Source: Takakia lepidozioides (lineage: Eukaryota; Plantae; Bryophyta). Taken from it: a stretch of 64,000 nucleotides of DNA. The position numbers and the translations under genes are program-made. Where the stretch lies: the NCBI GenBank assembly GCA_030704615.1, contig CM060734.1:20770001-20834000 (forward strand), read 5' to 3'. Each line of letters begins with the position of its first letter. Positions within the stretch are counted from its first letter, which is position 1. The notes under the pieces are model-generated. The model did not search any database. It worked only from the letters and a program-made list of their open reading frames with translations, and was not told the origin of the DNA. Of this stretch, positions 1,522-57,245 are shown one piece after another.

Positions 1522-1523
1522 CT

Positions 1524-1535
1524 TGGTATCAGAGC
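1524..1535 (+). promoter_or_regulatory. Primer binding site (tRNA-iMet)
   Basis: TGGTATCAGAGC lies 2 nt after the LTR end. Confidence 0.92.
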
Positions 1536-1576
1536 TTAGAGTTCAGTACGCGATCGTCATTGGGATCGGCCTCATC

Positions 1577-4500: not shown

Positions 4501-6128
4501 AAGGTGTTCACGGACAATGCCACAGTGAAGTATTTTGCCACGCAGCCTAAGTTGTCCCCAAAACAAATTAGGTGGCAAGACACTTTGGCACTGTTTGACG
4601 TGGATATCTAGTACAAACTGGGACGGGACAATGTGGTGGCCGATGCTTTAAGTAGAAAGCAGCAGCTCATGATGGTGTACAGGGGCGAGACGGCGTTCCA
4701 AAGGAAGATCCGGAAGGCTTACCGGAAGGATGAGATGGCGAAGTCCGTGATGCGGGACTTGAGGATGGGGGTTAAATTGCAGTTCCACTTGCAAAATGGA
4801 CTGCTCTGGTACAAGCAAAAGCGTCTCTACGTGCCGAAGGGAGGGATCAGAGATAGTCTCTTAAGAGAATGCCATGATGGTCCGCTTGCGGGCCACGGCG
4901 GAGCCAAGCGCACCGCGGCACTCTTGAAGAAAGAGTATTTCTGGCCCAAACTGATATGTGAGTATGTCAAGACATGCACCACATGCCAACAAAACCAGAG
5001 CGAGTACAAAAAGCAAGCGGGGCTGTTACAACCCTTGCCGATTCCAGAGGGGTCTTGGGAAAGTGTCTCGATGGATTTCATGACTGCTATGCCGCTGTCA
5101 AAAGGATTCGATGCAATCATGGTGGTGGTGGATAGGTTCAGTAAAATGGGCCATTTCATCCCCACCAAGGAGATGGCAACGGCACAGGAGATGGGGCGAC
5201 TTTACTTCGCCCATGTCTTCAAGCATCATGGACTCCCGAAGGATATTGTCTCGGACCGCGATCCAAAGTTTACGAGTAAATTTTGGAGGGCACTTTGGAA
5301 GAAGATGGGGACGAGGCTCAAGATGAGCACCGCCTTCCCACCTACGACAGACGGCCAAACGGAAAGGGTGAATTCCGTGGTGAAGCAGATCTTGCGGAAT
5401 TACGTGTCAGCGGACCAATCGGACTGGGTGGAGCACTTGGACGCGGCAGAGTTCTGTTATAATAACACAAAACACCCGCAACGGGTGTTTCCCCCTTTCG
5501 TATTGGTCTATGGAAAAGCACCTCTAGTGCCGACAAGTTGGGCTACCCAAGACGTTGAGGAACCGGCAGCAGCGGCAGTGCTGGAAGAACGCGATCGTTT
5601 GTTGAAGCTCGCAAAGTACAACATTGCCAAAGCTAGGAAACGGTATGAACGGCAAGCAAATCGGAAGCAGAGGGAGGTTAAGTTTGAGGCAGGCACGGAG
5701 GTCTGGTTGAGCATCAATTTTTCGACTACCTCCGGAAGTGAGTCCACCCTCCGTATGCGGGACCCTTTCGCATCCGGAAGGTTATGAATGAGTAGTATGA
5801 ATTGGAGCTGCCGGCAAACAGCAAGGTGCTACCGGTATTCCACGTCTCCCTTTTGAAGCCTTACTTCAAAGATGAAGCGCATCCGAATCGGCATCAAATG
5901 TTGCACCTGCCACCTGTGCTGTTGGATCATGAAAATGAACCTGAGTATGAGGTGGAGGCAGTGCTTAAGTCGAGGAGGTTCAAGAATCAAGAAACGGAGT
6001 ATCTCGTGAATGGAAGGGCTATCATATCATCATGTGGAGCATCTCGGGTGCGTGCCTCAGAAATGAGAAACGCATCCGAGGCGGTTGCAGCTTTCGAAGG
6101 GCGACCTCAAAAGCGGAAGAAGCGTTGA
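1577..6128 (+). pseudogene. A1 gag-pol (Gag, CCHC knuckle, protease, RT, RNase H, integrase, chromodomain) with stops and frameshifts
   Basis: Motifs [36 protein letters not shown] (YIDD mutated), AYESKKL, SMDFM, VSDRD, DGQTER, PVFHVSLLK and EYEVEAVL. Confidence 0.92.
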
Positions 6129-6641
6129 TGGGGACATCAACCTTGGAGCATGGGGGAGGAAATGCATGCTTAGCCCGGCTTAGCTAGCTCAAGAATCCGA
6201 TTGCAAAACTTGTATTGTACAAATTTTGTTATAAATGAAATGGTTTCCAAATGTTGTGTGTCATATTTTGTTTGGAATGGTGATGCATGGTTTGGTTGGC
6301 TAGTGTGTAGAATGCATGCTAGCTTACAAAAGTGGGAGAGGTAAATTGGGTTAATCGTGTATTTGCGCAGTGCTAAAATCGGGTGACTCCCACCCAAGGG
6401 GCAAGGAAACTTGCGCCTTCTTTGGGAGTTCACGTGCTAGTTCGCACCTGGCGCGTGCGTGTACTACAACTGCACTACCGAGGGGGTTGTCTTGTAGTGC
6501 GGGCTAACGTGGAAGCTACATGCTTCCGTTCACGTACTATAATCGTGTAGCCTCGGGACGAAGTCGAAGTGCAGCTTCGGCGTGTTCCTGTACCTCAGGC
6601 CAACATTCCAAGGCGGACCCAATTGTAGTGATTAGCGCACC

Positions 6642-8779: not shown

Positions 8780-9226
8780 ACTGGAGGAGAGAGACGACGT
8801 ATACGGCGGTTCCTGAGGGCTTACAAGAATTGCTTTGCCTTCAGTTTGAATGATTTGGGAGCACTGAAGGGTCAGGAGATTCGTATTGACGGACACGCTA
8901 ATCTTTCGGAGACCCTATAGATACAGTGACATGGAGAGGTCTTTGATTCAGATGAGGACTCAAGATCTCTGGGAGGCTGGTTTGGTGGAGCTTTCTGGTG
9001 GAAAGTATGCTTCAGCCACGGTGATGCTAGCCAAAAATGATGTCTATGACAATTGGACGGAGAGACGTATGTGCGGTGACTACCGGGCTGTAAATCGTCA
9101 GACCAAGTCCGATAAGTATGCCATGCCCACACCTGAGGAGATCTTTGATGCCATTGGGCATGCCAAGGTCTTTAGCACTCTGGACTTGCAGTCCGGATAT
9201 CACCAGTTGCCGATCAAGGAGGCGGA
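8780..9226 (+). pseudogene. B1 reverse transcriptase, N-terminal half
   Basis: Motifs RRPYRYS, RMCGDYRAVN and FSTLDLQSGYHQLPI. Cut by the B2 insertion. Confidence 0.88.
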
Positions 9227-10019
9227 TGTTATGGTTTTATTTGTGATTAGTTAGAAATAATTATTTCTAACTAATTAGTACATTATATATTTATATTTGT
9301 ATTTTGTTGGCATTGGGACTTCATTTGGTTCCATGTGCCAAGTGAGGTGACGAACCTCACTTAGGACGTGGGGAGGGTGTTGCAAGGTTTGCAAGAAGAA
9401 AGCCTTGTGGTGTTTATGTATTCAAGGAGAGCCTTATTGAAAAGTTTGAGAGCTTGTGAAGAAGCTCTTGTTCTGCAAGTGTTGCAGGGTTTGAGGAGTT
9501 CAAGAAGAGTTCGGGTGTTAAGGAAGCAAGCGGTGCATGTGTGGAGCATGTGTGGAGCATGGTTTCAGCTTGTAGGAGTCTTCAACTTCATGCTTAGGAG
9601 AGCTATGAGTGGAGGTAGACATTTGATTTCTCTTTGGGGCAGAATAGTGTATTTGTGGAGCATGCTTTGAGTTGGGGTTTCAATCCCAAGCTTGGGAAGA
9701 GCATGTCTATGGAAGTGGCAAGTGCAGGGCTGGATTAGGAGCTCTAAGAAGTGAACTATGGCCATAGAAAGAAACACTATGAGTGCATGCGATGGCTCGA
9801 AGAGGGTATGCCATAGAAAGCTCAATAGCTTGTTCTATGTTTGTTTCAATAAGTTCCATAGAGAAAGAGAGCTTGTTGTGTGGCAAATAGCTTGCTCAGG
9901 GAGTTAGATGCACTCTTGGTGGCCTATTGATGCTCAAGAAACCAAGAACAACACCTCTGGTTGCTCCATAGAAGCCATAGCTCGTTGCAGCAATCGCAGA
10001 GGCAAAGCGGCGCAAACCC

Positions 10020-11190
10020 TAGCTTGGGAACGCGTGGGAACGCAAAAGAACGCGTGAGAACGCTTGGGAACTCCTTGGGAACTCGTGGGAACATTGTCCC
10101 AGAGTTGGGAGTACCACCGTTGTCCAATCGGATGAACTATTGAGCCAGTGGATGAAAATCGGCGCTCCTGGATGAGAATCGGTTGCAGTGGATGAAACTG
10201 TGCCAAAGGATGAAATCTCGTCAGCGGATGAAATATTGCGCTATCGGATGAAAAATCACGGCGACGGATGAAACTCCGTCAGTGGATGAAATCGTGGCAG
10301 TGGATGAACTATCGCGCTATCAGAGGAAAAATCACGGCCAGATGAAACTGCATCAGCGGATCAACTATCGTGCCATCAGATGAAAAATCGTGGAGACGGA
10401 TGAAACTGCGCCAGCGGATCAAATCATGCCAGTGGATGAAATATCGCACCGACGGATGAACTATCGCGGCGGATGAAGTATCGGACCTACGGATGAGAAA
10501 TCGCGGTTTTGGATGAAATTTGGTCAGTGACGGATGAAAAATCGATTAACTATGGATATTTTTGGAGTCTTTTGGGGCCTGCTTTGAGGACTATTTGGGG
10601 TCTATTGAGGCCAATATCTTACAGGTATTGGGGCCTGTTTGAGGACTATTTGGGATCTATTGAAGCCAATATCTTGCAGGCTTGTGGAGCCTGCTTGGGG
10701 TTGTTTGAAGGACTATTTGGGGTTTTTTGAGGCCAATGTTTGGCAGGCCTGTGGAGCCTTGTGAGGGCTGGTTGGAGGACGATTGGAGGTCTTTGGAGGC
10801 CCATATTGGGCAGGCTTATGGAGTTTTCTAAGAGCTCTTTGGGGGACTATTGGAGGTCCTTGGGGTCAAATACTTGGCAGATTTGAGGAGCTTCTTAAGG
10901 GCTGTTGGAGGTCCTTGGAGGCCAATATTTGGCAGATTTGATGAGCTTCTTAAGGGCTGTTGGAGGACTATTGGAGGTCCTTGGAGGCCAATACTTGGCA
11001 GATTTGAGGAGCTTCTTAAGGGTTGTTGGAGGACTGTTGGAGGTCCTTGGAGGCCAATACTTGGCAGATTTGAGGAGCTTCTTAAGGGCTGTTTGGAGGA
11101 CTCTTGGAGACCATATTGGGCAAGCTTGTGGAGCTATCGTGAGGGCTGGTTGGAGACCATGGAGGCCACTAATTGGCGGGCGCCTAAGGC
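10020..11190 (+). repeat. Three adjacent tandem arrays in the B2 leader
   Basis: GGGAAC-type ~10-bp units (10020-10105), GGATGAA-anchored ~20-bp units (10130-10545) and TTGGAGG-based 55/66-bp units (10560-11190). A mirror copy lies at about 28780-29860. Confidence 0.85.
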
Positions 11191-11790
11191 CTTTTGGTGG
11201 ACTGTTCAGAGTCCAAGTTTGCGAACTTCTTGAACCTCGGTGGGTCTATGTTAGGGGCTGATTGAGGGCAGATTTCAGAAGTTCATGGCAATAATTTGAG
11301 GGCTCTTGAGAGTTATTTGAGAGGTTATTTAAGGATAGTCTTATCTATTGCTTAAGCAATAGTGAATGTGAAGATAGGGGGAGTAATGGGATAAGAGCAT
11401 TCTGGGCTTAGAGATTGCTTTAGCTTCTCTTCTCTATAGTCTTCCATCATTCTTATAGGCCAAAGCTTTTCCGTAAGCGGATGTAGAGCTGGTTTGGATA
11501 GAGACTTGGCCATCTTGCAAGTTTATTGAAGCCGCAAGGAGATCGATGGATTTAAGCTGTGGGAGATGTTGTTGTTTGAGTTTCCTGTGTTTGGATCCTC
11601 CTCCCACACATGCATGCTTGACTGTGCGCCATGCTAGTTTGGTTTGGGCGCTTGCTTTTATAGGTGGTTGTGCCGGAAATATTGTGGCCGGCCAATCCTA
11701 GAGCGTACTGTCGGTGGTGAGACTGGGGTGATGACCAGCAGACCATCATTGTTTCTCTTATGGTGAGGCTGGGTTGATGACCAGCAGACC

Positions 11791-13611
11791 ATAGGAGTGC
11801 CTGCGGTGGATGCAGGTGCAGGTGCAGGTTCAGAATATGAATCTAGTATTCCAAACCATAAGCCGCAATAGGTTCTCTACCAGGTTACCTTGTGGAAAGG
11901 AGGATTACAGACGAGTTGATCGCCGGTTTGACTGTGAGTTTTCATCACGGAGGTGCCACCAGTTGCTGAGGAGAGTGCCAGTACAAGCACCAGCGATACT
12001 AGTGGGTATACAAGACAAGGTGTGCGGTTTAGGCCACCTTCACCTTCAGTGTCTTCTGAGGAAGGTTCAGACTCAGAGTTAGGAGGATTCTCGCCGAGGG
12101 TGCAAGCCATTTCCGTGCCATTGTTGTGGGATAAAATGGAGGAAATGTATGGAGCTACCAAGGGGCCACGTCGGTACTCGGGAGTTGTGGGCACCATCGA
12201 GCTTGATGATTTCATACAGGAGTTTGATAGTTGGTGTGATTTGCAGCAGATGCGCAATCCACAACTGTTTACGCCTTTTATGGCGTGGAAGGGGCTGTTT
12301 CAGCACCTTGAGGGGCCGCCTATGGATGACTACCATGAGTTTAGGCGGGGAAATGAGGTGGAGATTGAGGAGTGGCGACAATATTGGTCACCTGACTATG
12401 TCTCCATCACTAGAGGCACAAGGGCAGCGGCGATACCAGCTACACCAACATCCCCAACTGCAAGCACTAGTAGTGGGACAAGTAAAGATGGAGCTGGGAA
12501 ATCCACTCAAGCTCCTGTTGCAGCACCAGCACCCGTGCCTGCCTTTAACCCAGTTATGGAGTTCTTTGAGGAGTTGAGGAGAAACTACTAGGGAATAAGG
12601 ACGGAGAAATTGCGGAGCTTGCAAGAGTTCCAGCGCAAGCCTACTGAGAGTTTGAGAGAGGCTTACACGCGCATGAGGCGATTGATAAATGTAACCCAAG
12701 GGGTTACGGAAGCTCAAGCAGTCCAATTCTGGTATGGGATATTGGACAAGGAGCTAAGGAGAAGGGTGCGGGATGCAACTCTCCTACAAGTAGACCAACC
12801 CACCTTAGCAAACGTGTTTTTGCTGGCAGAGCGGATAGAGCTCAATATGGTGGAGGAACGAGTGGTCATGGTGGGGTTTGGTAAGGAGACACAACGAAGT
12901 GGGGCTCCTAGCCAACAACAACCACTACCCCAACGTGCTCAAGGCAACAAGGGGGTTCAGGCGAAGCCCAGGGAAGGACAGAGAGGATCTCAATTGTAGA
13001 GGTCACTTCCTTCATTCTCAGGCCAACAACAGTCGGGTGGGACATGTTGGGATTGTGGAGGACCCCATGTTAAGAGAGATTGCCCGGAGAGAGGCAAAGG
13101 GCCGGCACAGTCACAGCCTACACAACTACAGTATGGGCATTGTGGCAAGTATGGGCATGAAGAGGCCCATTGTTATGACTTGCATCCTGAGCTACGGCCA
13201 GGCCAGTTCCAAGGGAAAAATGGTGGCCGAGGACGAGGCAATGTAGTCCAGAGAGGTAGAGGAGGCAGAAGTCGCGGTGGAGGTTGTAACCAAAACCAAG
13301 GAGCACAAGGTCAAGGTCAAGGTCATGACCAAGGCATGGTGGATAGGCTTGCCCAACTAGAGCAACGTCTTGCTGCCATGGCCACTACTAATGTGGCGTC
13401 AGCTCCAAGGCCTGAGGTTCAAGCCCCACCTGTACAACCTCCTATGCCTAGGGAAGACCAGATTGGTATGGGCTTCATGTGTGGAGCCGCACTTGCTGGA
13501 CCATTGCATGTGGACTGTGCAGCTGCTGTCACTCGAGCAGCAACGCGTGCTCCTGAGCCAAGAGGAGCAGATGTGGATTTTGATCCACAAAGAAGGGAAG
13601 CAAGTCGATAG
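11791..13611 (+). pseudogene. B2 gag with two zinc knuckles
   Basis: The frame-1 reading extends upstream to about 11791 through stop codons that look CGA/CAG-derived. Knuckles CWDCGGPHVKRDC and HCGKYGHEEAHC. Confidence 0.75.
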
Positions 13612-14050
13612 ACAAGGCTTCCACAGTCTTTCACATTGGCTGAGACAGTGCCAACTACGCCATCGATGGTACCGGCTCACCCAAGTGTGTCAGAGGTAGA
13701 GCCACGAGTATCAGTGGGGATAGTTGGTATGGCTCGGGAAATGCCAGTGGGTGGTGCTGTAAAGCAGGGTGCAGCCAGTACGTTGTTGGGCGGCTACGCG
13801 GTTTTGCCAAGCTCCATTGTTTTCTGCGATGACCATTGCAATGCCGGGGATTCGGCCAGCTGCTGTGTTCAGACTAGCAGCTAGACTCTGTGAGAGTGGT
13901 GATGCATCGGCACTATCTGCGGGGATAGCGGATAATGTGCAGTGCATGGATATCATGGACTCAAGGGTGAAGACAGCCACAGCTGCACCATAGCAAGCGG
14001 CAGCTGCAAGGTTGCAGGAGATGTCAGCTAGACCAGCCATTGAGCGTAGT

Positions 14051-14724
14051 ATGGTGACTCCTGGGGTAGTCATGGTGGACAATCAGGATGGTATGTTTTA
14101 GTTGGGTGGCCCAGCCGGGAAGAGGTTTAGGCCACTGCGGGTCTTGTTGGACTCGGGAGCACAACCATTGATGTTGGGAAGAGCAGCAATTGTAGGCTTA
14201 GGCCTTACAGAGGTAGATTTGGAGCCTTGTCCTTTCCACATTCAAACATCTTTGGGCGGTTCAGAGAAGGCACGAGGGATTACACGCAATGAGCTCTTCA
14301 TTCGATTGCAGCCGACCATCCTACGGACGGCTCAGTCATGAGAGCTAAAGCCATTGTTACGGACGCGATGTCTTATGATGTGCTTATTGGTGGGGCTGTG
14401 TTATACCCCATGGGCTTTACTTTGGACTTTTGGGAGGAAACGGCATCCTATATGGCAGAATGGCAGTTAGGAGATGGCCGACGTGCACTGCTCCCAGTGC
14501 GGTTTATTGGGAATGTAGCGGTGGATCATAGGAACATGATGCCCACATTGGCTGCATTATCAGGGGTGGCGGCTTGGGGTGGTGAGCTCTTGGAGGGCAA
14601 TAGCTATGCAGATGATAGGCCATCACCTGATGAGGACAAACAATTGGCATACAAGGCTGATTTGCTTCCTCATGTGCCTGTGCATATTCCACTTGGGGTA
14701 CGGTTGGGAATTTGCATCGAGTAG
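14051..14724 (+). pseudogene. B2 aspartic protease region
   Basis: Motifs RVLLDSGAQPLMLG and SYDVLIG. Confidence 0.85.
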
Positions 14725-14859
14725 CAGGCGAGTGTGTGCACCAAGCATGGCGGAGGCCTTTCCATTGGTGAGTGTGGGGAGTTCAGTGACATCACCTGAA
14801 CCTCCTGAGTTAGCTCCTTTGGACACAGTGCCCATTACTTGGCAACCACCTGACTCAGG

Positions 14860-15815
14860 GATTTATTTGCTAGACCTGTTTGGAGGCATGAGCACTGGGC
14901 TTGCAGAGTGTTGCAAGCAGGGATTAAAGTACGCAAGTATTTGTATAGTAGAAGGACTGAGATTGCTCGGCTATTTCCATGTGCCACATTTCCTGCCTCA
15001 CACACCGTATCTTGAAGAGTGTTGCCCTCTCAACAGTTCAAGGGTATCAAAGGCCTTGGCCCGCAGACATTACCTTGCTGGGAGCGGATATTTGGCAGCG
15101 GCAATGGTCATTACTTGTGAAACCGGATGTGCTTGCCAATACACTCTCCCGCAGTCATGGGAATGGCTTGCATTGATGCACGATCGCATTGTGTTTGTGG
15201 GGAGATGTTGCGAGTGTTGCGGGACTTGCAGACGAAGAATTGCAACCTCTAGGCTACATCTTAGAGAATGTTCCTCTTATGGGGGATTCTCGGGCCAGGT
15301 TATTGCCCTTGTGCATCATGTGCAGTCTTGGATTGGATCGGGCGGTGCTATTGATGCATCACGGTGGATCACGCGCGCATCGTCCTCGATTGTGGTGAAA
15401 CCAATCTTGCACCACCAGAGCTGCTCAAGAGAGCATACATTCCATTCATCGGCCACCCAATCTCACGGTTGAAGGCATTTTGGACCAAGGGAGACAACCA
15501 CAAGGGGTGCGACATGATACCGTTGGCCACCTCTAGCAGTGGTCAAATCGAGTGGGGGGCCAGCCACGGTTGGGGCTTTGCCTACGCGCATGAGCTTTCC
15601 CTCAGCGCATGCTTTTCGAGACAATGGTCCTGGATTGATTTGGACAGTGTGCTACAACCAATTGGTGGAGCCCAATGCGGATGAGCAGAGCGGCAATGGA
15701 ATTTGCCACCGGCACTACAGTATGCCAGCTCTGTCAGAGCATCACGCCGCCAAGTGTTTGGGTCAAGCAATGGACCTAAATTGCTTGACATGGGTCATTG
15801 GTTTGGTGCATGACT
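14860..15815 (+). pseudogene. B2 C5 cytosine methyltransferase domain (heavily frameshifted)
   Basis: Motifs IYLLDLFGGMSTGLA, PADIT, GYILENVPLMG, SRAHRPRLW, EPNADEQ and LGQAMDLNCLTWVI. Motif IV is garbled (GCACQ). Confidence 0.82.
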
Positions 15816-16289
15816 GAGGCAACGGAGATTGCAAGCATTGATGGCTACTCTGTCACTCCATTGGATATGCATCGCTCCTCCCTGCCTAACCGGACGGTGG
15901 AGGACAGTGAGTGGGGGCGAGCACAGGATCGTGGGTTGCAAATACCATGGCAGATGTTGGGATGAGATGCACAAGAGAGAGTCATTGGATCTCTCAAGCA
16001 GCAGTATGAGGAGTGGGGAGAGCCATGGACTGAGGATCAGTTGGAGGCCAAGGTGACCAAGGTTTTTGAAGAGGTTTGTAGGATGTTTCTTGCGCATAGG
16101 ATGTCTCAAGGTGGCTATGGCGGAAGCAAGTGGAGGCTACGCCATCAGTCAGATTGGGCGGACAAGCCCAAAAGGGTTGCTATCTAGCAACCAAGGATTC
16201 GTCTCCTACCTCCAAGCCTGGGTACCCAAGGTTGCAGTCACTGAGGACAATTGGGAACCAGATGTTGGATCTACAGTCACCCAAGAGAG

Positions 16290-19280
16290 AGACGGAGGAT
16301 CCAACAATTTTCTAAGGGCTTATAGAATTGCTTTGCCTTCAGTTTGAAGGATTGGGGAGTTTGAAAGGTCAGGAGTTCGTATTGATTTGGCAATGACACG
16401 CGCCAATCTTTCAAAGGCCCTACCGGTATAGTGACATGGAGAAGTCATTGATCCAGTCACGGACTTTGGAGTTGTTCAAAGCTAGATTGGTGGAGTTGTC
16501 AGATGGGGGTATGCCTCGCAACGGTGATGCCAGTTAAGAAGGATATCTAATGGCATTGGACAGAAAGAAGGATGTGTGGGGACTATCGTCCTGTGAACCG
16601 TCAGACTAAGTCCGATAGATATGCCATGCCAACTCCAAAGGAGATCTTGATACCATTGGGCATGCCAAGGTGTTTAGCACATTGGACTTGCGATCCGGTT
16701 ACCACCAGTTGCCATTCCATCAAAGGGCTGACAAACAAAAGACACATTCTGGGGATTGACCAACATGGGAAGGATTGTTTTACCAATGGCATTTCTTACC
16801 ATTTGGGTTGAAGAATGCTCCTGCAGAGTTTCAAAGGGTCATGGATAAGATTCTCGCGGGGCTAGACTTTGTCCGGTGCTATATTGATGACATCATTGTC
16901 TTTTAGTGCTACGGTTGAGGATCATGAGAGACACCTTCAGGTGGTGTTTCAGCGCTTGAGCGCACGAGGGTTGAAAACTGCACCCCGAAAGTGCAAGTTC
17001 TTCCACAATCAGAATTGTATCTGGGCCACATGATATACCCTGGAGGTTGGGTGTTCAATAGACAAAGGTGGAGGCCATTGGCATGGCATTCCACGCCCCA
17101 TGGATGTGAGCCATAGTTTCGTGTTTTCATGGGATTGACAAACTACTATCGACGGTTGGTCAAGGGATTTAGCAACATTGCAAAGGCTCTTACCAAGTTG
17201 ACAAAGGTGGGTCAGGAGTGGCAGTGGGGGAGGAGCAGGAGGAAGCCTTTGAGGAACTCAATGTTCGATTGACTTCTGCTGCACCTATGTTGAGGCGGCC
17301 TAGTTCGGGGGCGGTCTTTTCCATCTACATACGGATTTGAGTATGCTGGGGATTGGAGCAGTGCTCACACAGGTGGATGATGAAGGAAGGGGTTCGTAGT
17401 GGCATATGCTAGCCGCTCGAACAATGATGCCGAGGCGAAGTATAGTTTCCTATGAAGGGAGCGTCTAGCTGCAGTATGGGCATTGGCACATTTCAGATAT
17501 GGCAATCTCTTCAATCTCTTCACCCTTGTCACGGATCACCAACATTGAAGTGGTTGATGGAGTCAGACAAGCTTACAGGAAGCTTGCTCGGTGGGCTACT
17601 TATGCTTCAAGAGTACGACTTCCAGGTGGTGCATCGAGCCGGTATTGTCAATCGGATGCAGATGGATTGGGTCGTAATCCATGCACAGCGAGCATGATGA
17701 TATTGGAGCTCGTTGGCATGGTGAGACGGATGAAGATGGTGCCAGGATGGCATGCATCGGCCTTTTTTGTGCATTCTAGCAATGGGAGCTCAAGCTGGTT
17801 CATCCCATGCGATTGGTCATGTAGATAGCGTGCATGACAATCCAGAGACTAGTGAGAAGTTTTGGTGGTGCTAAGGATGTGCATGAAAGGCAACAGTGTT
17901 TGGCATACCTTCGTACCGGAGAGACAGCAGCTAGTGTGACTGCTAAGGAGAGAGATCCGGTCCTAACAACGAGCCAAGAGGTTCAAGTGGGAGGGGACTC
18001 ATCTACTCCGGGTATGGGAGGATGGACGAGTGGGATTGTGCCTCATCCAATACAACGAGTGCGATTGTACGCCATGCCCATGAGGAGTTGGACATTTTTG
18101 GTCGGCGCACTCATAGTTTGCTGCAAGGGCAGTAATTGGTGGCGGGGCATGCACACGGATGTGCAACCAGTTAGTGGCAAGGTGCATGGTGTGTGATAGA
18201 GTACGGGCTTCTTTCAACGCTCCTACTCCACAATTGCATCCTTTACACCATTATGGGTTTGGGCTATCGTTGGAGTCCTGACTTTTCAGGCCCATTGCCA
18301 CTGACAATCGCCATAACAAGTATGTGCTGGTGATGGTGGAACACTTCTCCAAATGCATTGAACTGGTGGCATTGCCTGACAAGGCAAGTGAGGGGGTTGC
18401 GTATGCATTCTTAGATTGAGTGCTTAGCCATTTTAGTGCTCTAGCCGAGGTACTCACGGACCAGGGGAGAGAGTTCTTGGGGGAGTTTCAGGCTTTGTGT
18501 GAGCAAGCCTTGATAGATCACCGCACTACTTCTTGGGATCATCCTGAGGCTGATGGCTTGCGGAGAGAGTTGTTCAGACAGTCAAGAGAGGTTTGCGCAA
18601 GTACGGTTTGCAGAAGGGACACCTAGGAGATTGGGACCTGCAACTGCCTTGGCTAGCTATGGGCTATAGGTTCAGCAAACAAGCTTCACTTGCCTCCTTC
18701 TCACCTTACTTTTCTTTCTTTCGGCCGAGAGCCGGATTTGCCTGCATCTATGATCCGGATGTGTGGAACAAGCATGTGCCCAGCGAGCAGAGTTGTTCAA
18801 GAGAGTCATGCCTATGGCTTTTGAGAACCTTGCATTGCCCAACACTGAGACACATTGAGGTACGTCACTATACGTGGAGGGGGATATTGGCCAAGTGTTT
18901 GGCGTTTCCACCCTGGGGACTATGTGTATCTGTAGCAGACAACGCCTACGACCTTGGATGTCACAGCAGGACGTGTGATTCTAAGGGTTAGGGAGGTGTT
19001 GCCTTCAGGAGTGTTGATTCAGGAGGGTCGAGATGGCATGGTATGGAAGGACCATATGCGCAATTGTGCGCCATGTCACCTTCCACATGTGGATGTGAAG
19101 ATAGATTCTAACCTTGCAGTGGTACCTGCAGGGTTGCGTTGCATGCTATGTGGGCATGCTGGTGGCGCCGCAACCATGTTGGTGTGTGACAAATGCTCAA
19201 GGGGGTGGCACATGGATGCTTGACACCGCCACTTGAGGAGGTTCCTATCGGAGAATGGTTTTGTCCACGATGCCTTGGAC
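16290..19280 (+). pseudogene. B2 RT - RNase H - integrase - PHD finger (many indels)
   Basis: Motifs [37 protein letters not shown] and LRCMLCGHAGGAATMLVCDKCSRGWH...EWFCPRC. Confidence 0.85.
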
Positions 19281-19540
19281 AGAGGCAGTGGGCATGACAA
19301 TGGTGAGGCGCAAGTGACCCAAGGTCTACTAGTGGGGCTTCAATGCCACGGATACTCACTGAAGATCATGGATTGTATGAAGGCGACTAAGATGGGACTA
19401 ACGTTTGCACCCGGCCACTTGATCTATCGACTTCAGGTGTTGGGACTTGTGCGATTGAAGACCAAGCGATGATCTTATTGGGGTAGATACTTGCAAGCTA
19501 TCCGGTGTTAGAGGGACCTAATCACCAGCTAGGGGGCGAT

Positions 19541-19626
19541 TGTGGCGTGGCTTTCTTAGGACTATATGCTAGAAGTGTGGTTGGGACAGCGATGTATGTT
19601 GTGGCACGATGCTTAGGTGCACGACA
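19541..19626 (+). repeat. Repeat X copy 1 (~86 bp, TG...CA), directly after the PPT
   Basis: Sequence tgtggcgtgg...gtgcacgaca recurs at 19977-20061. Confidence 0.85.
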
Positions 19627-19628
19627 GC

Positions 19629-19975
19629 TATCATGGTTTTATTTGTGATTAGTTAGAACTAGTTATTTCTAACTAATTAGGATATTATACATTTATATTT
19701 GTATTTTGTTGGCATTGGGACTTCATTTGGTTCCATGTGCCAAGTGAGGTGGCGAACCTCACTTGGGACGTGGGGAGGTTATCTCCACGTGAGACGTAGG
19801 CAGGCTCGTCTTCTTCTAGTCGAGCCTCCCGAGGCCTCTCTCGCCGCCATAGCTCTAGTACTTGAGATGGAGAGTGGGTGAGGTCTGTATGGTGGAGTCC
19901 TTTAGCAAGGTGCCATTGGCTTGACTTATATAACGTGATAGAGTGGTTTCTCCTCTTTTCACCATTTCTGTATCA
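19629..19975 (+). repeat. Internal copy of the 5'-terminal repeat C of B2
   Basis: Matches the sequence from 9227 onward and the reverse complement of about 30598-30944. Contains TATATAA near 19927. Confidence 0.85.
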
Positions 19976-19976
19976 T

Positions 19977-20061
19977 TGTGGCGTGGCTTTCTAGGACTAT
20001 ATGCTAGGAAGTGTGGTTGGACAGCGATGTATGTTGTGGCATGATGCTTAGGTGCACGACA
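19977..20061 (+). repeat. Repeat X copy 2, the 3' terminus of B2
   Basis: Direct repeat of 19541-19626, followed by the TSD CGGA. Confidence 0.85.
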
Positions 20062-22457
20062 CGGACAAACAGAAGACGGCATTCTGGGGGAAGAACGCTT
20101 GAGAGCGCACAGATTGAAATTACATCCAGGGAAGTGCAAGTTCTTTCACAACTAGATTGAGTATCTGGGCCACATGATATATCCTGGAGGATTGGGGATG
20201 CAGCAGACTAAGGTAGAGCCATCGCACAGATTCCACGCCCCACGGATGTGAGCCGAGTTCGAGCTTTCATGGGGTTGGCGAACTACTATAGACGGTTCGT
20301 CAAGGGATTTAGTGCTATTGCAAAGGCTCTAACCAGCTGACCAAGGTAGACCAAGAGTGGCAGTGGGAAGATGAGCAAGAGCGAGCTTTTCAGGAGCTCA
20401 AGGCGAGGTTGACCTCGACGCCCATCTTGAGACGACCTATCAGGGGGCGTCCCTATCAGCTGCATACAGATTGGAGCATGCTGGGGCTTGGAGCGGTGCT
20501 CACACAGGTGGATGATGAGGGAAGAGAGTTCGTAGTGGCTTATGCTAGCCGCTCAAACAACGCTGCAGAATCTAAGTATAGCTCATATGAGGGGGAGTGC
20601 TTAGCTGTAGTGTGGGCCATGACACACTTCAGGTGCTATCTATACGGCAATCTCTTCACCTTTGTCACGGATCACCAGCCACTCAAGTGGTTGATGGAGT
20701 CAGACAAGCTTACGGGGAAGCTTGCACGGTGGGCACTTATACTCCAGGAGTATGACTTTCAGGTTGTGCATCGACCGGGTTTGGTCAATAGGGATGCGGA
20801 TGGATTGAGTCGCAATCCATGCACAAGCCAGCATGATGACACTGGAGCTCGGTGGCATGGTGAGACGGATGAGAAGATGGTGCCGGGATGGCATGCATCT
20901 GTTTTTTTTTGTATTTTGGCATCGGGAGGTCAGGTTGGACCTACAATAGGGATGACTGTAGACGGAGTGTCTGAGGACCCTAAGGCTAGTGATGAGCCAG
21001 GTGGTGCCAGAGATATACATGAGGATTCGGTTGTGTTGGACTACCTCTGCACTGGAGACACGGTAGCTAGTGTGACTGCCAAGGAGAGGGATCGGATCCT
21101 GCAACGAGCCAAGAGGTTCAAGTGGGAGGGGATACACCTGCTTCGAGTGTGGGAGGATGGTTGGGTGAGGATCGTGCCTCACCCAACACAGCGTGCACGA
21201 TTAGTGCGGCATGCCCATGAGGAGTTGGGGCATTTTGGAGTGCGACGCACTCATAGTTTACTGCAAGGGCAGTATTGGTGGCGTGGTATGCACACATAGG
21301 TGCAACAGTTCGTGGCTAGGTGCATGGTGTGTGACAGGGTGCATGCTTCATTCAACGGCCCTACACCATAGTTGCATCATTTACCCATCATGGGATTGGG
21401 CTACAGGTGGAGTCTTGACTTCGCAGGGCCGTTGCCACTGACGATGCGCCACCACAGATATGTGTTGCTGATGGTGGAGCACTTCTCCAAGTGGATTGAG
21501 TTGGTTCCATTGCCTGACAAGGCTAGTGAGGGGGCTGCGTATGCATTCCTGGATCGTGTGCTTAGCTGATTCGGTGCTCCAGCTGAGGTACTCACGGACC
21601 AAGGAAGAGAGTTCTTTGGGGAGTTTCAGGCTTTATGTGATAAAGCCTTGATAGACCACCGTACCACTTCTCGGGATCATCCTGAGGCCGATGGCTTGGC
21701 AGAGAGAGTGGTACAGACGGTGAAGAGGGGCTTGCGCAAGTATGGCTTGCAAAAGGGACACCTAGGAGATTGGGATCTTCAGGTACCTTGGTTAGCCATG
21801 GGCTACAGGTTTAGCAAGCAAGCATCACTTGCCTCCTTCTCACCATATTTCCTTCTCTTTGGCCGAGAGCCGGATTTGCCTGCATCTATTCGCAGGGAGG
21901 CTGCAGTAGTCCTCAACCTTGATGATCCGGATGTGTGGACACAAGCATGTGCCCAGCAGGCAGAGTTGTTCAAGAGAGTCATGCCTATGGCTTTTGAGAA
22001 TCTTGCTATTGCCCAACACCGAGACACATTGAGGTATGCCACTATACGTGGAGGGGGATATCGGCCAGGTGTTCGGCGTTTCCACCCTGGGGACTATGTG
22101 TATCTGCAGCAGACAATGCCTACGACCTTGGATGTTACAGCAGGACGTGTGATTCTAAGGGTCAGGGAGGTGTTGCCTTCAGGAGTGTTGATTCGGGAGG
22201 GTCGAGATGGCATGGTATGGAAGGACCATGTGCGTGATTGTGCGCCATGTCACCTTCCACATGTGGATGGGAGGATAGATCCCAACCTTGCAGTGGTACC
22301 TGCAGGGTTGCGTTGCATGCTATGTGGGCATGCTCGTTGTGCCGCCACTATGCTGGTGTGTGATCGATGCTCAAGAGGTTGGCACATGGGATGCTTGACA
22401 CCACCTCTTGAGAGGGTCCCTGATGGAGATTGGTTATGTCCACACTGCTTGGGATAG
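20062..22457 (+). pseudogene. B1 RT tail (catalytic core deleted near 20090), RNase H, integrase and C-terminal PHD finger
   Basis: KTAFWG jumps directly to RLKLHPGKCKF. Then LHTDWS, AYASRS, EGECLAV, HEELGHFG...CMVC, SLDFAGP, LTDQG, GLAER and a C4HC3 PHD at 22314-22448. Confidence 0.9.
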
Positions 22458-22718
22458 TGGCAGTGGATATGACTAGTGGCAGCTAACAAGACATGGGAGG
22501 CCAAGCTCATAGGAGTCAATACCCGAGATCTCAGGCTCAAGTTCATAGGTTGCAAGACGGCGACTAACGATGGGGTAACTCTTGTACCCGGCCTCTCGAT
22601 CTATCGAGTTTGAGTGTAGTAGGGACAGTGGTGGAGGACTTAGTGAGGCTATGGCCACTATCACATCTTGTGACTACCTGGACTTAGAGGGACCTAAGCG
22701 CGAGCTAGGGGGGGTGAT

Positions 22719-22948
22719 TGTGATGGACTAGTGGCTGCACTAGTGGTGGACTAGTGGTTGCACTAGTGGTGGCTAGTGACAGCCTAGTGGTGGGCTAGTG
22801 GCTGCACTAGTGGTGACTAGTGGTTGTCTAGTGGCAGCCTAGTGGTGCACTAGTGGTGGACTAGTGATAGACTAGTGTTTGGTGTGCACATGTGTTGTGT
22901 GGTTTTGGACAGCGATGTAGTTATGTAGCGATATGTATGTGCACGATA
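22719..22948 (+). repeat. 3' terminal repeat/LTR of B1 containing a CTAGTGG array
   Basis: Follows the PPT AGGGGGGGTG (22707-22716). Its 3' part (ggacagcgatgta...gtgcacgata) is homologous to repeat X. Confidence 0.75.
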
Positions 22949-27624: not shown

Positions 27625-28242
27625 TATAACCTACTCTTGACTGGTCCTCTTCCCAATCGTGCTTGCTCATGCATGTACACAATCTGAAACCGTGCCCTGG
27701 AATTACCTGCAGCATGGTGCTTTCATCTCTGAAGCTGAAGATGGAATGCCAAGGTCTACCACCTCGTAACCCACATCGCCTCCGCTTCTAACAATCAAGA
27801 GCTCCACGGTGTTCCTTGCATAACAACTTGGTTTCTCTCATTCTCAAGCAAAAACCACAAGTGCTACAACTAACTCGTATCTGGCACTCACAGATACGAG
27901 CTGATCTTTCTCAAGTGATAAAGAAGAAGAATACAAGCACAAGCTTATGCGACCTCACAAAGCTGAAGCATAAACTCATGCATATATAACCTCATCACTC
28001 AAATACAAGTCAAGCAAAGTGCACCCCACGCCATGGGGAATCCACACTACGGCGCCATAGCTAGGCGCGGTGAGGCTCAACTCGAGAAAGATGAGCCTCC
28101 CGCGCTTGCCGTGAAGATAACCACTCCAGGGCCTAAATTTGCCTTGACCCCTGGATTGACACTTGGGCCAATCCCAAATGTCAATATGTAAAAGCTAGCT
28201 ATTTCCTAGCTAGTTTCACACTAGTGGTAAAATAACTTGACA
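27625..28242 (-). mobile_element. Terminal fragment D, a distant relative of repeat C
   Basis: Starts TGTCAAG on the minus strand. Has a subterminal hairpin and patchy similarity to C (gctcatc...gagcctc, gcttgactt). Confidence 0.5.
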
Positions 28243-30944
28243 CCCCAGCCTCACCACCGACAGCACGCTCTAGGATTGGCCGGCCACAATATTTCCGACA
28301 CAACCACCTATAAAAGCAAGCGCCCAAACCAAACTAGCATGGCGCACAGTCAAGCATGCATGTGTGGGAGGAGGATCCAAACACAGGAAACTCAAACAAC
28401 AACACCTCCCACAGCTTAAATCCATCGATCTCCTTGCGACTTCAATAAACCTGCAAGATGGCCAAGTCTCTATCCAAACCAGCTCTGCCTCCGCTTACGG
28501 AAAAGCTTTGGCCTACAAGAATGATGGAAGACTATAGAGAAGAGAAGCTAAAGCAATCTCTAAGCCCAGAATGCTCTTATCCCATTACTCCTCATATCTT
28601 CACACTCACTCTTGCTTAAGCAATAGATAAGATTATCCTTAACCTCTCAAATAACTCTCAAGAGCCCTCAAATTATTGCCATGAACTTCTAAAATCTGCC
28701 CTCAATCAGCCCCTAACATAGACCCACCAAGGTTCAAGAAGTTCGCAAACTTGGACTCTAAACAGTCCACCAAAAGGCCCTAGGCGCCCGCCAATTAGTG
28801 GCCTCCATGGTCTCCAACGAGCCCTCACAATGGCTCCACAAGCCTGCCCAATATGGCCTCCAAGAGTCTTCCAAACAGCCCTTAAGAAGCTCCTCAAATC
28901 TGCCAAGTATTGGCCTCCAAGGACCTCCAATAGTCCTCCAACAGCCCTTAAGCGTTCCTCAAATCTGCCAAGTATTGGCCTCCAAGGACCTCCAACAGTC
29001 CTCCAAAGAGCTCTTAGAAAGTTCCATAAGTCTGCCCAATATGGGCCTCCAAGAACCTCCAACCGTCCTCCAACCAGCCCTCACAAGGCTCCACAAGCCT
29101 GCAAAACATTGGCCTCCAAGGACCTCAAATAGTCCTTCAAACAGCCCCAAGCAGGCTCCACAAACCTGCAAGATATTGGCTTCAATAGACTCCAAAATCA
29201 AGCAGGCCCCAATACCTGCAAGATATTGGCCTCAATAGATCCCAAATAGTCCTCAAAGCAGGCCCCAGAAGGCTCCAAAAATATCCATAGTCAGTCGATT
29301 TTTCATCCGTCACTGCCCAAATTTCATCCAAAACCGCAATTTCTCATCCGGAGGTCGGATACTTCATCCGCCGCGATAGTTCATCCGTCGGTGCGATATT
29401 TCATCCACTGGCGCAGTTTCATCCGATGGCACGATAGTTCATCTGCTGACGCAGTTTCATCCGTCGCTGCGATTTTTCATCCGATAGGACGATAGTTCAT
29501 CCGCTGCCACGATTTCATCGGCTGACGCAGTTTCATCCGTCGCCATGATTTTTCATCCGATAGCGCGATAGTTCATCCGCTGACGATATTTCATCCACTG
29601 GCGCAGTTTCATCCGTTGCCGCAATTTTTCATCCGATAGTGCGATAGTTCATCCGCTGACAAGATTTCTGCAACCGATTCTCATCCAGAAGCGCTGATTT
29701 TCATCCACTGGCTCAATAGTTCATCCGATTGGACAATGGTGGTGCTCCCAACTCTGGGGCAATGTTCCCACGCGTTGCTATGCGTTCCCACAAGTTCCCA
29801 AGCGTTCTCATGCGTTCCCTTGAGTTCCCAAAGAGTTCACACACATTCCCAAGCGTTCCCAAGCTAGGGTTTGCGCCGCTTTGCCTCTGCGATTGCTGCA
29901 ACGAGCTATGGCTTCTACGGAGCAACCAGAGGTACTGTTCTTGGTTTCTTGAGCATCAATAGGCCACCAAGAGTGCCTCTAACTCCCTGAGCAAGCTATT
30001 TGCCACACAACAAGCTCTCTTTTTCTATGGAACTTATTGAAACAAGCATAGAACAAGCTATTGAGCTTTCTATGGCATACCCTCTTCTAGCCATCGCATG
30101 CACTCATAGTGTTTCCTTCTATGGCCATAGTGCACCTCTTAGAGCTCATAATCTAGCCCTGCACTTGTTACTTCCATAGACATGCTCTTCCCAAGCTTGG
30201 GATTGAAACCCTAACTCAAAGCATGCTCTACAAATACACTATTCTGCCCCAAAGAGAAATCAAATGTCTACCTCCACTCATAGCTCTCCTAAGCTTGAAG
30301 TTGAAGACTCCCACAAGCTGAAACCATGCTCCACACATGCACCACTTGCTTCCTTAACACCTGAGCTCTTCTTGAACTCCTCAAACCCTGTAACACTTGT
30401 AGAACAAGAGCTTCTTCACAAGCTCTCAAACTTTTCAATGGGGCTCTCCTTGAATACATAAACACCACAAGGCTTTCTTCTTGCAAACCCTGCAACACCT
30501 TGTAACTTAAGAGCCATCTACCCAGCTCTCTTCCACACACAAGTGCTAACTATGCTAACACCTTGCACTCATAGATGTAAGCAGGTCTTCTTCTAGTGAT
30601 ACGGAAATGGTGAAAAGAGGAGAAACCACTCTATCACGTTATATAAGTCAAGCCAATGGCACCTTTGCTAAAAGACTCCACCATACAAACCTCACCCACT
30701 CTCCATCTCAAGTACTAGAGCTATGGCGACGAGAGAGGCCTCGGGAGGCTCGACTAGAAGAAGACGAGTCTGCCTACGTCTCACGTGGAGATAACCTCCC
30801 TACGTCCCAAGTGAGGTTCGCCACCTCACTTGGCACATGGAACCAAATGAAGTCCCAATGCCAACAAAATACAAATATAAATGTATAATGTCCTAATTAG
30901 TTAGAAATAACTATTTCTAACTAATCACAAATAAAACCATGACA
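28243..30944 (-). mobile_element. Second copy of the B2-type 5' terminus and leader (repeat C plus tandem arrays), abutting the PPR pseudogene
   Basis: Reverse complement of about 9227-11730, and retains ~290 bp that are deleted in the plus-strand copy. Confidence 0.88.
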
Positions 30945-33900
30945 ACTGCCCTAGTTGACATGTATGCAAAATGTGGGTGCATTGAGGATGCAAAGGGAGT
31001 GTTCGACACTATGGCTGAGGAGTGCGATGCTTGCAGGGTATGCACAGTAGGGACATGGGATGGAGGCTTTGGAGACCTATGAGCAAATGATGGGGGAAGC
31101 ACATCATGTTTATGTGCATTTGCAATGCTTGTGCAAGCCTGACAGCCTTGGAGAAGGGCAACAGAGGTGCATGGGGATATCATCAAAGCTGGAATGGTAC
31201 CAAATGTCATTCTAAACACTGCCCTGGCAGCTCTGGAAAAGGGGGAAGAGGTGCATGGCGACATCTTCAGAGCTGGAATTGTACCAGATGTCATTCGGAA
31301 CAATACCCTAGTGGACATGTTTGCAAAATGTGGGTGCATCTAGGATGCAAAGGGAGTGTTCAACACTATGGCTGAACAAGATGTGGCGTCGTGCAAGCCT
31401 GGCAGCCCTAGAGAAGGGCAAAGAGGTGCATGGGGATATCGTCAAAGCTGGAATTGTACCAAATGTCATTCTACACACTACCCTAGCAGCTCTGGAAAAG
31501 GGGAAAGAGGTCCATGGCGACATCTTCAGAGCTGGAATTGTACCAGCTCTCATTCTGGACAATACCCTGGTGGGCATGTTTGCAAAATGTGGGTGCATCT
31601 AGGATGCAAAGAGAGTGTTCGACACTATGGCTGAACCAGATGTGGTGTCGTGGAGTGCGATGCTTGCAGGGTATGCACAGCAGGGACGTGGGATGGAGGC
31701 TTTGGAGACCTATGAGCGAATGATGGGGGAAACACATCATGGTTGTGTGCATTTGCAATGCTTGTGCAAGCCTGGCAGCCCTGGAGAAGGGCAACAGAGG
31801 TGCATGGGGATATCATCAAAGCTGGAATTGTACCAAATGTCAATCTAAACACTGCCCTGGCAGCTCTAGAAAAGGGGGAAGAGGTCCATGGCGACATCTT
31901 CAGAGCTGGAATTGTACCAAATGTCATTCTAAACACTGCCCTGGCAGCTCTGGAAAAGAGGAAAGAGGTGCATGGCGACATCTTCAAAGCTGGAATTGTA
32001 CCAGATGTCATTTGGAACAATACCCTAGTGGACATGTTTGCAAAATGTGGGTGCATCTAGGTTGCAAAGGGAGTGTTCAACACTATGGCTAAACAGGATG
32101 TGGCGTCGTGCAAGCCTGGCAGCCCTAGAGAAGGGCAAAGAGGTGTATGGGGATATCGTCAAAGCTATACCAAATGTCATTCTAAACACTGCCCTGGCAG
32201 CTCTGGAAAAGGGGAAAGAGGTCCATGGCGACATCTTCAGAGCTGCAATTGTACCAGATGTCATTCTGGACACTACCCTGGTGGACAGGTTTGCAAAATG
32301 TGGGTGCATCTAGGATTTAAAGAGAGTGTTCGACACTATGGCTGAACCAGATGTGGTGTCATGGAGTGCGATGCTTGCAGGGTATGCACAGCAGGGATGT
32401 GGGATGGAGGCTTTGGAGACCTATGAGCGAATGATGGGGGAAGCACATCATGTTTGTGTGTATTTGCAATATTTGTGCAGCCCTGGAGAAGGGCAAAGAG
32501 GTGCATGGGGATATCGTCAAAGCTGGAATTGTACCAAATGTCATTCTAAACACTGCCCTGGCAGCTCTGGAAAAGGGGAAAGAGGTCCATGGCGACATCT
32601 TCAGAGCTGGAATTGTACCAGCTCTCATTCTGGACAATACCCTGAGCTTTGGAGACCTATGAGCGAATGATGGGGGAAGCACATCATGTTTGTGTGCATT
32701 TGCAATGCTTGTGCAAGCCTGGCAGCCCTGGAGAAGGGCAAAGAGGTGCATGGGAATATCATCAAAGCTAGAATTGTACCAAATGTCAATCTGAACACTG
32801 TCCTGGCAGCTCTGGAAAAGGGGAAAGAGGTGAATGGCGACATCTTCAGAGTTGGAATTGTACCAGATGTCATTCTGAACTAGACCCTGGTGGACATGTT
32901 TGCAAAATGTGGGTGCATCGAGGATGCAAAGGGAGTGTTCAACACTATGGCTGAACGAGATGTGGTGTCGTGGAGTGCGATGCTTGCAGGGTATGCACAG
33001 CAGGGACATGGGATGGAGGCTTTGGAGACCTATGAGCATATGATGTGTGACGGGGTGAAGCCCAACCACATCATGTTTGTGTGCGTTTGCAGTGCGTGTG
33101 CAAGCCTGGCAGCCCTGGAAAAGGGTGAAGAGGTGCACGGCGACATCGTCAGAGATAGAATTGTACCAGATGTGATCGTGAACACTACCCTGGTGGACAT
33201 GTATGCCAAATGTGGGTGCATGGAGGATGCAAAGGGAGTGTTCGACAATATGGCTGAACGAGATGTGGTGTCGTGGAATGCGATGATCACAGGATATGCA
33301 CAGCATGGTTGTCATAGGGAGGTGTGCAACTATTTGAAGGAATGCAAAAGAACGGCTTGAAGCCGAGCAATATCACCTTTATATGTGTTCTCTCTGCATG
33401 CAGCCATGTTGGCCTACTGAATGAAGGAAGACGCTACTTTGATTCCCTGAGTCAAGATCATGGTGTCACTCCGACAGTAAAGCACTCTGGCTGCATGGTG
33501 GACCTTCTTGGACGTGAGGGACAACCGGATGAGGCAGTGAACATGATTAATAAAATGCCCATAAATTCAGGTGTTGTGGTATGGAAGGCCTTGCTTGGTG
33601 CCTGCAGAATCCATGGCAATGTGGAGATGGCTGAACGTGCAGCAACTATCCGAGCATGTGGGCTGAACAGGATGTCGCGACTTATGTATTGCTCTCAAAC
33701 ATCTATGCTGCAGCTGGCAGGTGGGATGATACTGCAAAAGTGAGAAGAATGATGAAGGTCAAAAGGGTTATAAACGAGCCAGGTCGCTGCTGCATTGAGG
33801 TTGGCAATAGGGTGCACACCTTCGTTGTGGATGACAAGTTGCATCCCAGAATTAAGGAAATCCATGCTGAGTTGAGAAGATTGGCTGGGAAGATGAAGGA

Positions 33901-34380: not shown

Positions 34381-35106
34381 TGTCGCGCACCTCACTTCGG
34401 TAAACTCCCCTTTAAGTCATAGTTACTCGCTTTGATGCGCGCGCCTGACTCCCAACCTGGCCGCCGGGCCAACTTGGAGCTTCGGCTGCTCACCGGGACA
34501 TAACGGTCCCCCTTCGCTTCCCTCTAAAACCCTCCACCTAATTGGGACTAGGAGAATTCCCTTTGGTAGATGGCAGTCCGGAACAGCTCCCCACTCTTTG
34601 GTCGCTTTCCGGCTCGCTCGCTTACTCACTAGTTTTTGGTCACCAACGGGCTTGCACCGTTCTCGGGGTTACTACTCCCTATATATACTTCTGTAGCTGT
34701 CCGCGGGGGTTCCACAACCAGCCATGCCATTTTATGGCGAACCACCACGAAAACCCTCGACTCCCGGTGATGAGTCGCGGTGAGTCTTGGCCCGCTCACC
34801 ACGGCCCCTATGGACCGTGATGAGTCCCAAGACTCCCCACGACTCCCACCACGAGGTCTCCGCCCCCATGGTGAGTCCTATGCCACCCCCACTAAGTCCC
34901 GCTAAGCTACCACCACCCCTTGTGGAGCCACCCCCACCGCAACCCGGTGTGCGGGGCTCCACCTAGTGAGCGCCTCCGCCTCCTTGAGTGCCTTGGGCAC
35001 TCAAGGGTGCTTCAGCCCCCCCCACCTATCGCTGCCGCTGCCCCCACCACAGGGGCAGCCCCTCATGTGTCCCGACCCCCCGCCCTCAAGGCAAAGGGCC
35101 GCGACA
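34381..35106 (-). repeat. 3' LTR of A2
   Basis: TG...CA termini; only a few differences from 40617-41338. Confidence 0.95.
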
Positions 35107-40561: not shown

Positions 40562-40616
40562 GATGAGGCCAATCCCATGGACGATCGCGTACTGAACTCT
40601 AAGCTCTGATACCAAG

Positions 40617-53128: not shown

Positions 53129-53149
53129 CTCCCACTCAATTAAACCATA

Positions 53150-57190: not shown

Positions 57191-57245
57191 GTTCTCTCAA
57201 TCTCAACTACCAACTCTCTCCTAGAGAAGAATGGCTCTGATACCA

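Follow-up and report, generated by a model that had tools for sequence, protein, structure and literature searches.

Permuted terminal repeats in a plant Ty3/Gypsy family, with an attachment palindrome inside the LTR and a possible insertion route through end-joined circles

The terminal layout of the retroelement B2, in which a repeat named C begins the insertion and the order polypurine tract (PPT), X, gc, C, t, X ends it, is a real, family-wide variant of the Ty3/Gypsy terminal structure. The integrase of this family very likely acts on an internal site rather than on the tips of the long terminal repeats (LTRs). Moreover, the family probably inserts after the ends of its cDNA have been joined to a 2-LTR circle, in which the integrase would open a palindrome of the 5' LTR. 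With regard to the whole Ty3/Gypsy lineage concerned, from green algae to land plants, we lean towards the view that the attachment (att) sites have moved from the LTR tips to a palindrome in U3 and that insertion proceeds only via an end-joined circle opened selectively at the 5' LTR. The layout has already been published, in a single sentence of a figure legend; no published account was found of the internal att palindrome, the self-priming, the two inserted forms or the missing mirror form.

The B2 element and its neighbours

The window is the whole 64-kb stretch of DNA that was analysed. In it, B2 has inserted into the RT gene of B1, an older relative, and the uninterrupted target site is present in a contig of run X7. 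A sequence-only reading had described B2 as C...PPT-X-gc-C-t-X followed by a target-site duplication (TSD), without X at the 5' end; coordinates and alignment confirm this order, as follows.

9227-20061, plus strand: whole B2 element, order C...PPT-X-gc-C-t-X, flanked by 4-bp target duplications
9223-9226, plus strand: 5' TSD CGGA (4 bp), within the RT gene of B1; the site found empty in the contig of run X7
9227-9376, plus strand: C1, the 5' terminus of B2; first 150 bp of C, no X
9377-11937, plus strand: long 5' UTR with tandem repeats, common to the copy at 28241-30499 (minus strand)
11938-13608, plus strand: gag-like region with a CCHC-like motif; broken frames, found by tblastn with L081 ORF1, no match in Pfam
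13793-15808, plus strand: protease and C5 cytosine methyltransferase (Dnmt3-like) region; broken frames, found by tblastn with P0015 and L081 ORF1
16290-19280, plus strand: RT, RNase H, DDE integrase and PHD finger; broken frames, assigned by Pfam on the B1 paralogue
19531-19539, plus strand: PPT
19541-19626, plus strand: X1 (86 bp), 5' part of U3, terminating in CACGACA
19620-19635, plus strand: internal att palindrome CACGACA-gc-T(A)TCATG, one base decayed here
19629-19975, plus strand: C2 (347 bp), probably the remaining U3, R and U5, terminating in TATCA
19808-19820, plus strand: predicted self-primer (transcript start), complementing the bases after C in intact 5' ends
19976, plus strand: C-end/X-start join, t, the putative end-to-end join of the cDNA
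19977-20061, plus strand: X2 (85 bp), the 3' terminus of B2
20062-20065, plus strand: 3' TSD CGGA

B2 is a dead copy, with broken frames and a truncated 5' C, which is missing some 295 bp, the primer site among them. X1 and X2 are identical at 83 of 84 aligned bases, with three gaps; these gaps are probably assembly errors, because host short-read contigs agree with X2 at all three of them. No contig across the X2-TSD junction of B2 itself was found among the host contigs, so that the assembly and the TSD are the evidence for this joint. A 34-bp direct repeat in the 5' UTR of B2 (11716-11796) lies at the site where a C'' element struck the copy beginning at 30944. The window contains several further copies and elements.

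22707-22948, plus strand: 3' end of B1 in the single-X form, PPT and one X' (22719-22948), then unrelated DNA
30585-30944, minus strand: intact 5' C (30944-30597) and self-priming site (30596-30585); upstream X absent
27904-28242, minus strand: C'' of a third subfamily, which has a primer pair of its own; inserted in the 5' UTR of the 30944 copy
45628-46053, minus strand: C' 5' end of the second subfamily with primer site; upstream X absent
63246-63679, plus strand: C' 5' end of the second subfamily with primer site; upstream X absent
34381-41338, minus strand: conventional Gypsy family, taken as control; 726-bp LTRs 99% alike, 5-bp TSD GTAGA
796-6633, plus strand: second copy of the conventional control Gypsy family, inside B1
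52822-57552: LTR element; 307-bp LTRs 98% alike, 5-bp TSD ATGAG

The single X-like repeat that had been reported at the 3' end of B1 is thus borne out. The conventional elements of the window with TSDs (n=2) have duplications of 5 bp, in contrast to 4 bp in B2. Two candidates were rejected: a solo LTR of 2.7 kb (C plus 2.4 kb) ending at 28241, whose end is the start of another inserted C-type element, and a transposon end suggested by CACTA-like letters at the end of C, which represent the U5/primer boundary. A B1-like integrase fragment lies downstream of the C'' at 27904-28242 (minus strand). Elsewhere, the stretch 30945-33400 holds tandemly duplicated, broken repeat-protein-like fragments, which from their motifs we take to be pentatricopeptide-repeat-like and which suggest that the host is a land plant, and an open frame of 624 codons with a RING finger occupies 60133-62007 (minus strand).

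The element is Ty3/Gypsy by descent, with a variant terminal structure. B1 and B2 together encode gag, protease, a cytosine methyltransferase region, RT, RNase H, DDE integrase and a PHD finger, and both the gag-PR-RT-RH-IN order of Ty3/Gypsy and the Ty3-type RT with a DDE integrase were found; the best PDB match of protein P0003 is Ty3 Gag-Pol. The PPT, the primer site and the short TSD, which are hallmarks of this superfamily, are present. Matching LTRs at both insertion ends are lacking, as none of the 44 3' ends and none of the 15 5' ends surveyed below is conventional. The methylase region was located in B1 and B2 by tblastn, B2's own broken frames giving no Pfam match; PF00145 (methylase) was matched in the relatives L036, L056 and L081, and the best PDB matches of the L081 methylase are DNMT3A/B. 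No tyrosine recombinase was detected in 64 ORFs of at least 100 aa from B2, L036, L056 and the near-intact L081.

Among longer proteins, 278 homologues were found at E 1e-20 or better, and those named here are among 120 listed of these 278. The matches listed include Marchantia (77% identity), Klebsormidium (54%) and chlorophytes, the Klebsormidium case being an integrase-PHD protein of K. nitens 54% identical to the B1 query. In the integrase (window 21570-22454 and homologues), the second D is separated from the E by 34 residues in B1 and in 102 of 106 matched homologues, one residue fewer than in Ty3 from PDB, which served as the reference for this spacing. The closest relatives carry RDHPE in the loop preceding the E, and the shortened spacing or this loop might be linked to cutting at an internal site. 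In L081, a single in-frame stop (L081:3489-3491) separates gag-PR-methylase (1162 aa) from RT-RH-IN-PHD (1047 aa), possibly as a read-through site. Many of the predicted relatives begin at RT, and P0015 combines methylase and RT in a single frame.

Insertion ends in relatives and in the host

Relatives were collected as the best 80 of 499 metagenome hits and six loci from genome bins, and they come largely from a few related metagenomes. After removal of 11 duplicates, 75 distinct loci were left, 31 of which were unclassifiable (too short, deleted, collapsed or too distant). The 44 classifiable 3' ends comprise 19 with X-att-C-X, 21 with X followed by unrelated DNA, 2 that run off the contig and 2 in which C is interrupted after 62 bp; L022 was moved by hand out of the single-X class for the 62 bp of C after its X, and L029 and L031 are possibly one orthologous locus. 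A 3' end at the end of C, where a conventional LTR would end, occurs at none of these 44 loci. Similarly, no X precedes any of 15 5' ends (10 distinct ones in relatives and 5 in the window), all of which start at TGTCA or a decayed form of it. TSDs of 4 bp are exact in four of seven full-length relatives and in B2, agree at three of four bases in two relatives and are absent from one (L055).

The host copies were examined in Logan contigs of runs X1-X4, which are from one sample, and of X5 and X7. In that one sample, the most frequent loose end corresponds to position 19626, the end of X, with 36-41 contigs per run and unrelated flanks (agreement 0.38-0.40), counts that pool PPT-X-att and join-X-att. 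Flanks at the start of C appear in 5-6 host contigs, in three of the four runs of the sample. Other host contigs, about 10% diverged, cross C-t-X. Viral contigs gave zero matches when searched by junction pattern, by single protein or by alignment.

The sequence-only reading had made its case depend on the recurrence of X-C-X at independent loci, and this layout recurs at 19 of the 44 relative 3' ends; neither a layout unique to B2 nor ordinary LTRs in other copies were encountered. Its suggestion of a non-canonical replication route is supported by this family-wide layout. Given the recurrence, there is no need for the chimera, the tandem co-integration or the misassembly that it had also considered. 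The indel errors of X1 in the assembly, the X2-flank joint that is unspanned by the host contigs found, and the likeness of C alone to a TG...CA LTR with primer site would all agree with a one-off at the B2 locus, be it a misassembly, a chimera of an LTR-C and an LTR-X family, or tandem co-integration with a deleted copy. However, the same layout exists at 19 distinct loci in four other families, including L036 and L047 as full-length C...X-C-X copies with TSDs, and also in other host contigs and in Klebsormidium, according to the published legend (PMC5890265). Moreover, the divergences of C1/C2 and X1/X2 agree within L036 and L047 (0.91/0.93 and 0.89/0.89). A one-off is extremely improbable for B2 and already refuted at the level of the family.

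L011 and L081 show X-att-C-primer site-UTR, as expected of a conventional 5' LTR. This is likely an assembly collapse, because the L081 contig overlaps itself circularly and L082 from the same assembly is X-C-X. L081-L086 are plant- or alga-type retroelements in bins titled cyanobacterium, Mollicutes, Halorubrum and Halanaerobiaceae, and their presence there is probably eukaryotic contamination. In L068 (2241-2403), X2 ends already at an inner CACGACA repeat of X and does not reach the final one, which looks like the use of a second half-site. A distant relative, L069 (10293-11400), carries a long extra coding region past the PHD finger and has no att palindrome within 3.9 kb downstream; it may lie at the boundary of the permuted lineage.

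A fixed palindrome, a loose join and the insertion route

The extent of the LTR can be read from its priming sites. In a Tf1-type arrangement, the primer site complements the 5' end of the element's own RNA (PMC4600332, PMC6317226, in their descriptions of self-priming). At four intact 5' ends of the window (30944, minus strand; 46053, minus strand; 63246, plus strand; 28242, minus strand), C directly abuts 12-13 bases that are complementary to a stretch within C, and the sequence of these pairs varies between subfamilies and families while the complementarity is kept. The pair is perfect in L023, L047, L056, L011 and L081, has 1-2 mismatches, in some cases at a second site, in L005, L025, L036, L040, L055 and L083, is doubtful in L038, and is poor or absent in L003 (three mismatches needed) and L084 (none). 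A comparable pair arose in 2 of 100 shuffles. Since this is a Tf1-type self-priming site, the end of C should be the end of U5, and the PPT likewise places the start of U3 at the start of X. By the standard scheme, reverse transcription should then make X-gc-C at both ends.

The two junctions of the 3' end behave differently. The X/C junction is the palindrome CACGACA-gc-TGTCATG, in which the majority base holds in every column of 22 att copies and the changes are nearly all transitions, C>T or G>A. Its core, GACAGCTGTC, recurs after the PPT region in L013, L038 and L081-L084, at 46-70% integrase identity; a palindrome scan with arms of at least 5 missed L011, L081 and L082, whose sites were located by motif. 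The C/X join is variable, being exact, carrying 1-3 extra bases that match the start of the primer site, or having deletions, and the outer LTR ends of relatives have no fixed TG...CA tips. The claim that X-gc-C joins the two termini of the element is to be divided: this junction lies within U3 and is probably copied from RNA rather than made afresh, and it is C-t-X that is likely a join made anew. In family S2, X2 is nearest to its own X1 at 6 of 8 loci with 17 candidates each, and in family S1 at 0 of 4 (ranks 7-14 of 16); in the young L082, both X copies are 100% identical.

We propose that transcription runs from a start within C1 to an end within C2, and that the first 12-13 nt of the transcript would prime reverse transcription just past C in a Tf1-like manner. 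Ordinary reverse transcription would then yield X-gc-C...PPT-X-gc-C, whose outer ends, without fixed TG...CA tips, would be joined imprecisely. Both strands of CA-gc-TG would be nicked by the integrase just after CA, so that each end carries a 2-nt 5' overhang, as retroviral ends do after processing. If the 5' LTR alone is opened, the product would be C...PPT-X-gc-C-join-X, and C...X might come from cuts in both LTRs, from a 1-LTR circle or from later X-by-X recombination. C...X-C-X would be the sole form that can be copied again, because it has C at both ends.

The mirror form, C-X-att-C...X, was found at 0 of 15 5' ends versus X-C-X at 19 of 44 3' ends. Under symmetry, such an absence has P of about 2e-4, or 0.004 for the 10 relatives alone. 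Because the mirror form is never seen, a symmetric circle model fails, and a preference for the 5' LTR must therefore be assumed. Mirror copies could be hidden in part by assembly collapse or by C-by-C recombination, but a preferred 5' site is the more likely account of their absence. It is possible, hypothetically, that the preference arises as the 5' LTR becomes double-stranded first.

Genomic sequences are compatible with joining either before or after insertion, and we consider the circle-first order the more probable. In an alternative that we regard as unlikely, the palindrome in the 5' LTR of linear cDNA would be cut, both new ends, of the long piece and of the short X piece, held by the integrase and inserted, and the C-X break sealed in the chromosome by host repair, with no free circle. 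The same products, the TSD and the variable join are expected from it, and it is well established that retroviral integrases use linear DNA as substrate, as reviewed in PMC11054761. On the other hand, the chromosome would have to break each time an insertion is productive; most joins deviate from a precise one by a few bases at most, and no captured flank was seen. Moreover, it leaves the missing mirror form unexplained too.

For PAT/Ngaro elements, template jumps and read-through copying have served as models. Applied to B2, the C-X join would come from an extra template jump of RT or be copied from a transcript through X2, and the integrase would then use the palindrome. The layout does equal A1...B1-A2-B2 as described for those elements (PMC4157794, PMC6681497), the U5/primer and PPT/X boundaries of family S4 share microhomology (CACTTGA in L081), and a directed jump could account for the asymmetry. 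However, microhomology does not exceed 1-2 bases in the window's family, S1 and S2, close copies differ in their joins, and reverse transcription that is primed right behind C1 and then jumps to R in C2 would leave the join uncopied. Such an origin seems to us quite improbable, and an end-joined circle opened at the internal palindrome is still the reading that we prefer.

Comparison with known systems

To our knowledge, insertion proceeds from the tips of a linear DNA in all LTR retrotransposons and retroviruses that are well studied. The B2 family, which seems to rely on an internal palindrome and on the joining of ends, allows the old question of whether circles can be integration precursors to be tested. 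If the proposed route is true, this would be the first retroelement with a circle junction as part of its normal life cycle, and the split-repeat architecture of PAT/Ngaro could be derived from ordinary LTRs without a recombinase. B2-type elements, which also bear a Dnmt3-like methylase and a PHD finger, would be missed by pipelines that match LTRs, such as the LTR-FINDER set behind REXdb, though they are high-copy in the host plant.

The B2 family probably belongs to the lineage of KnitGypsy-Dnmt3 of Klebsormidium nitens, to which we liken it via the published description. De Mendoza et al. (2018) reported for this element, in the legend of their Fig. 4c, DIRS-like repeats (A-coding-B-A-B) with Gypsy domains (PMC5890265). 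The Gypsy domains, the Dnmt3-like methyltransferase and the A-coding-B-A-B repeats are thus shared with the B2 family, and the earlier statement that split repeats do not characterise Gypsy elements was too strong. The passages of their text on this element do not give boundaries, att site, primer mechanism, TSD, single-X form or mechanism, and treat the lineage as an acquisition of K. nitens (PMC5890265), whereas relatives of the B2 family occur in Marchantia (77%) and chlorophytes. The stop between methylase and RT in L081 is to be set against the KnitGypsy-Dnmt3 description. A 2026 preprint (10.64898/2026.05.21.726589) touches on streptophyte Gypsy-DNMT3, in the part concerned, only in passing. 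Our literature search, with subscription journals and Repbase reports outside its scope, found the layout only in PMC5890265, and found no mechanism and no internal att site in a Gypsy element.

PAT, TOC, Ngaro and VIPER share with B2 the order A1...B1-A2-B2 and an internal junction resembling joined termini (PMC4157794, PMC6681497). They are described as encoding a tyrosine recombinase, whereas the B2 family has a DDE integrase, a protease, a PPT and 4-bp TSDs. Tf1/Sushi and the plant Tcn1 chromoviruses are alike in their Ty3/Gypsy RT, integrase and self-complementary primer site (PMC6317226, PMC4600332); in the B2 family, Tcn1-type self-priming is predicted from complementarity with compensating changes. 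Those chromoviruses, as characterised in the same papers, have matching LTRs and a chromodomain, unlike the PHD finger, methylase and permuted LTRs of the B2 family. The plant Tcn1 set was collected, by the account of these sources, with LTR-FINDER, which needs matching LTRs (PMC6317226, PMC4600332). An insertion preference of NCGN is given for Phygy, moss non-chromoviruses, in its published summary; the TSDs found here (CGGA, ACTA, TACA, CATA and CCAA) depart from it.

With regard to the enzyme, HIV-1 integrase is reported to cleave the palindromic 2-LTR junction in vitro (PMC1905944). The integrases of HIV-1 and foamy virus resemble what is proposed for that of the B2 family, in what these reports describe, as DDE enzymes that cut an internal palindrome of abutted att ends (PMC1905944, PMC1180852, PMC4372172). 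The retroviral cleavage is presented as a side reaction on an end-to-end junction, with a linear precursor as the normal one, whereas the palindrome of the B2 family is encoded inside U3 and is found at every insertion end seen. A circle-junction model for retroviruses was proposed in 1984 and displaced by linear precursors, as recounted in PMC11054761. Finally, the copy-out/paste-in elements IS3, IS30, IS21 and IS256 are similar to the proposed route in that a DDE enzyme inserts a circle by opening abutted ends (PMC3299598). These are, in the outline given there, bacterial DNA transposons with a junction made by the transposase, whereas in the B2 family the junction would be templated by RNA and a second, imprecise join would close the molecule.
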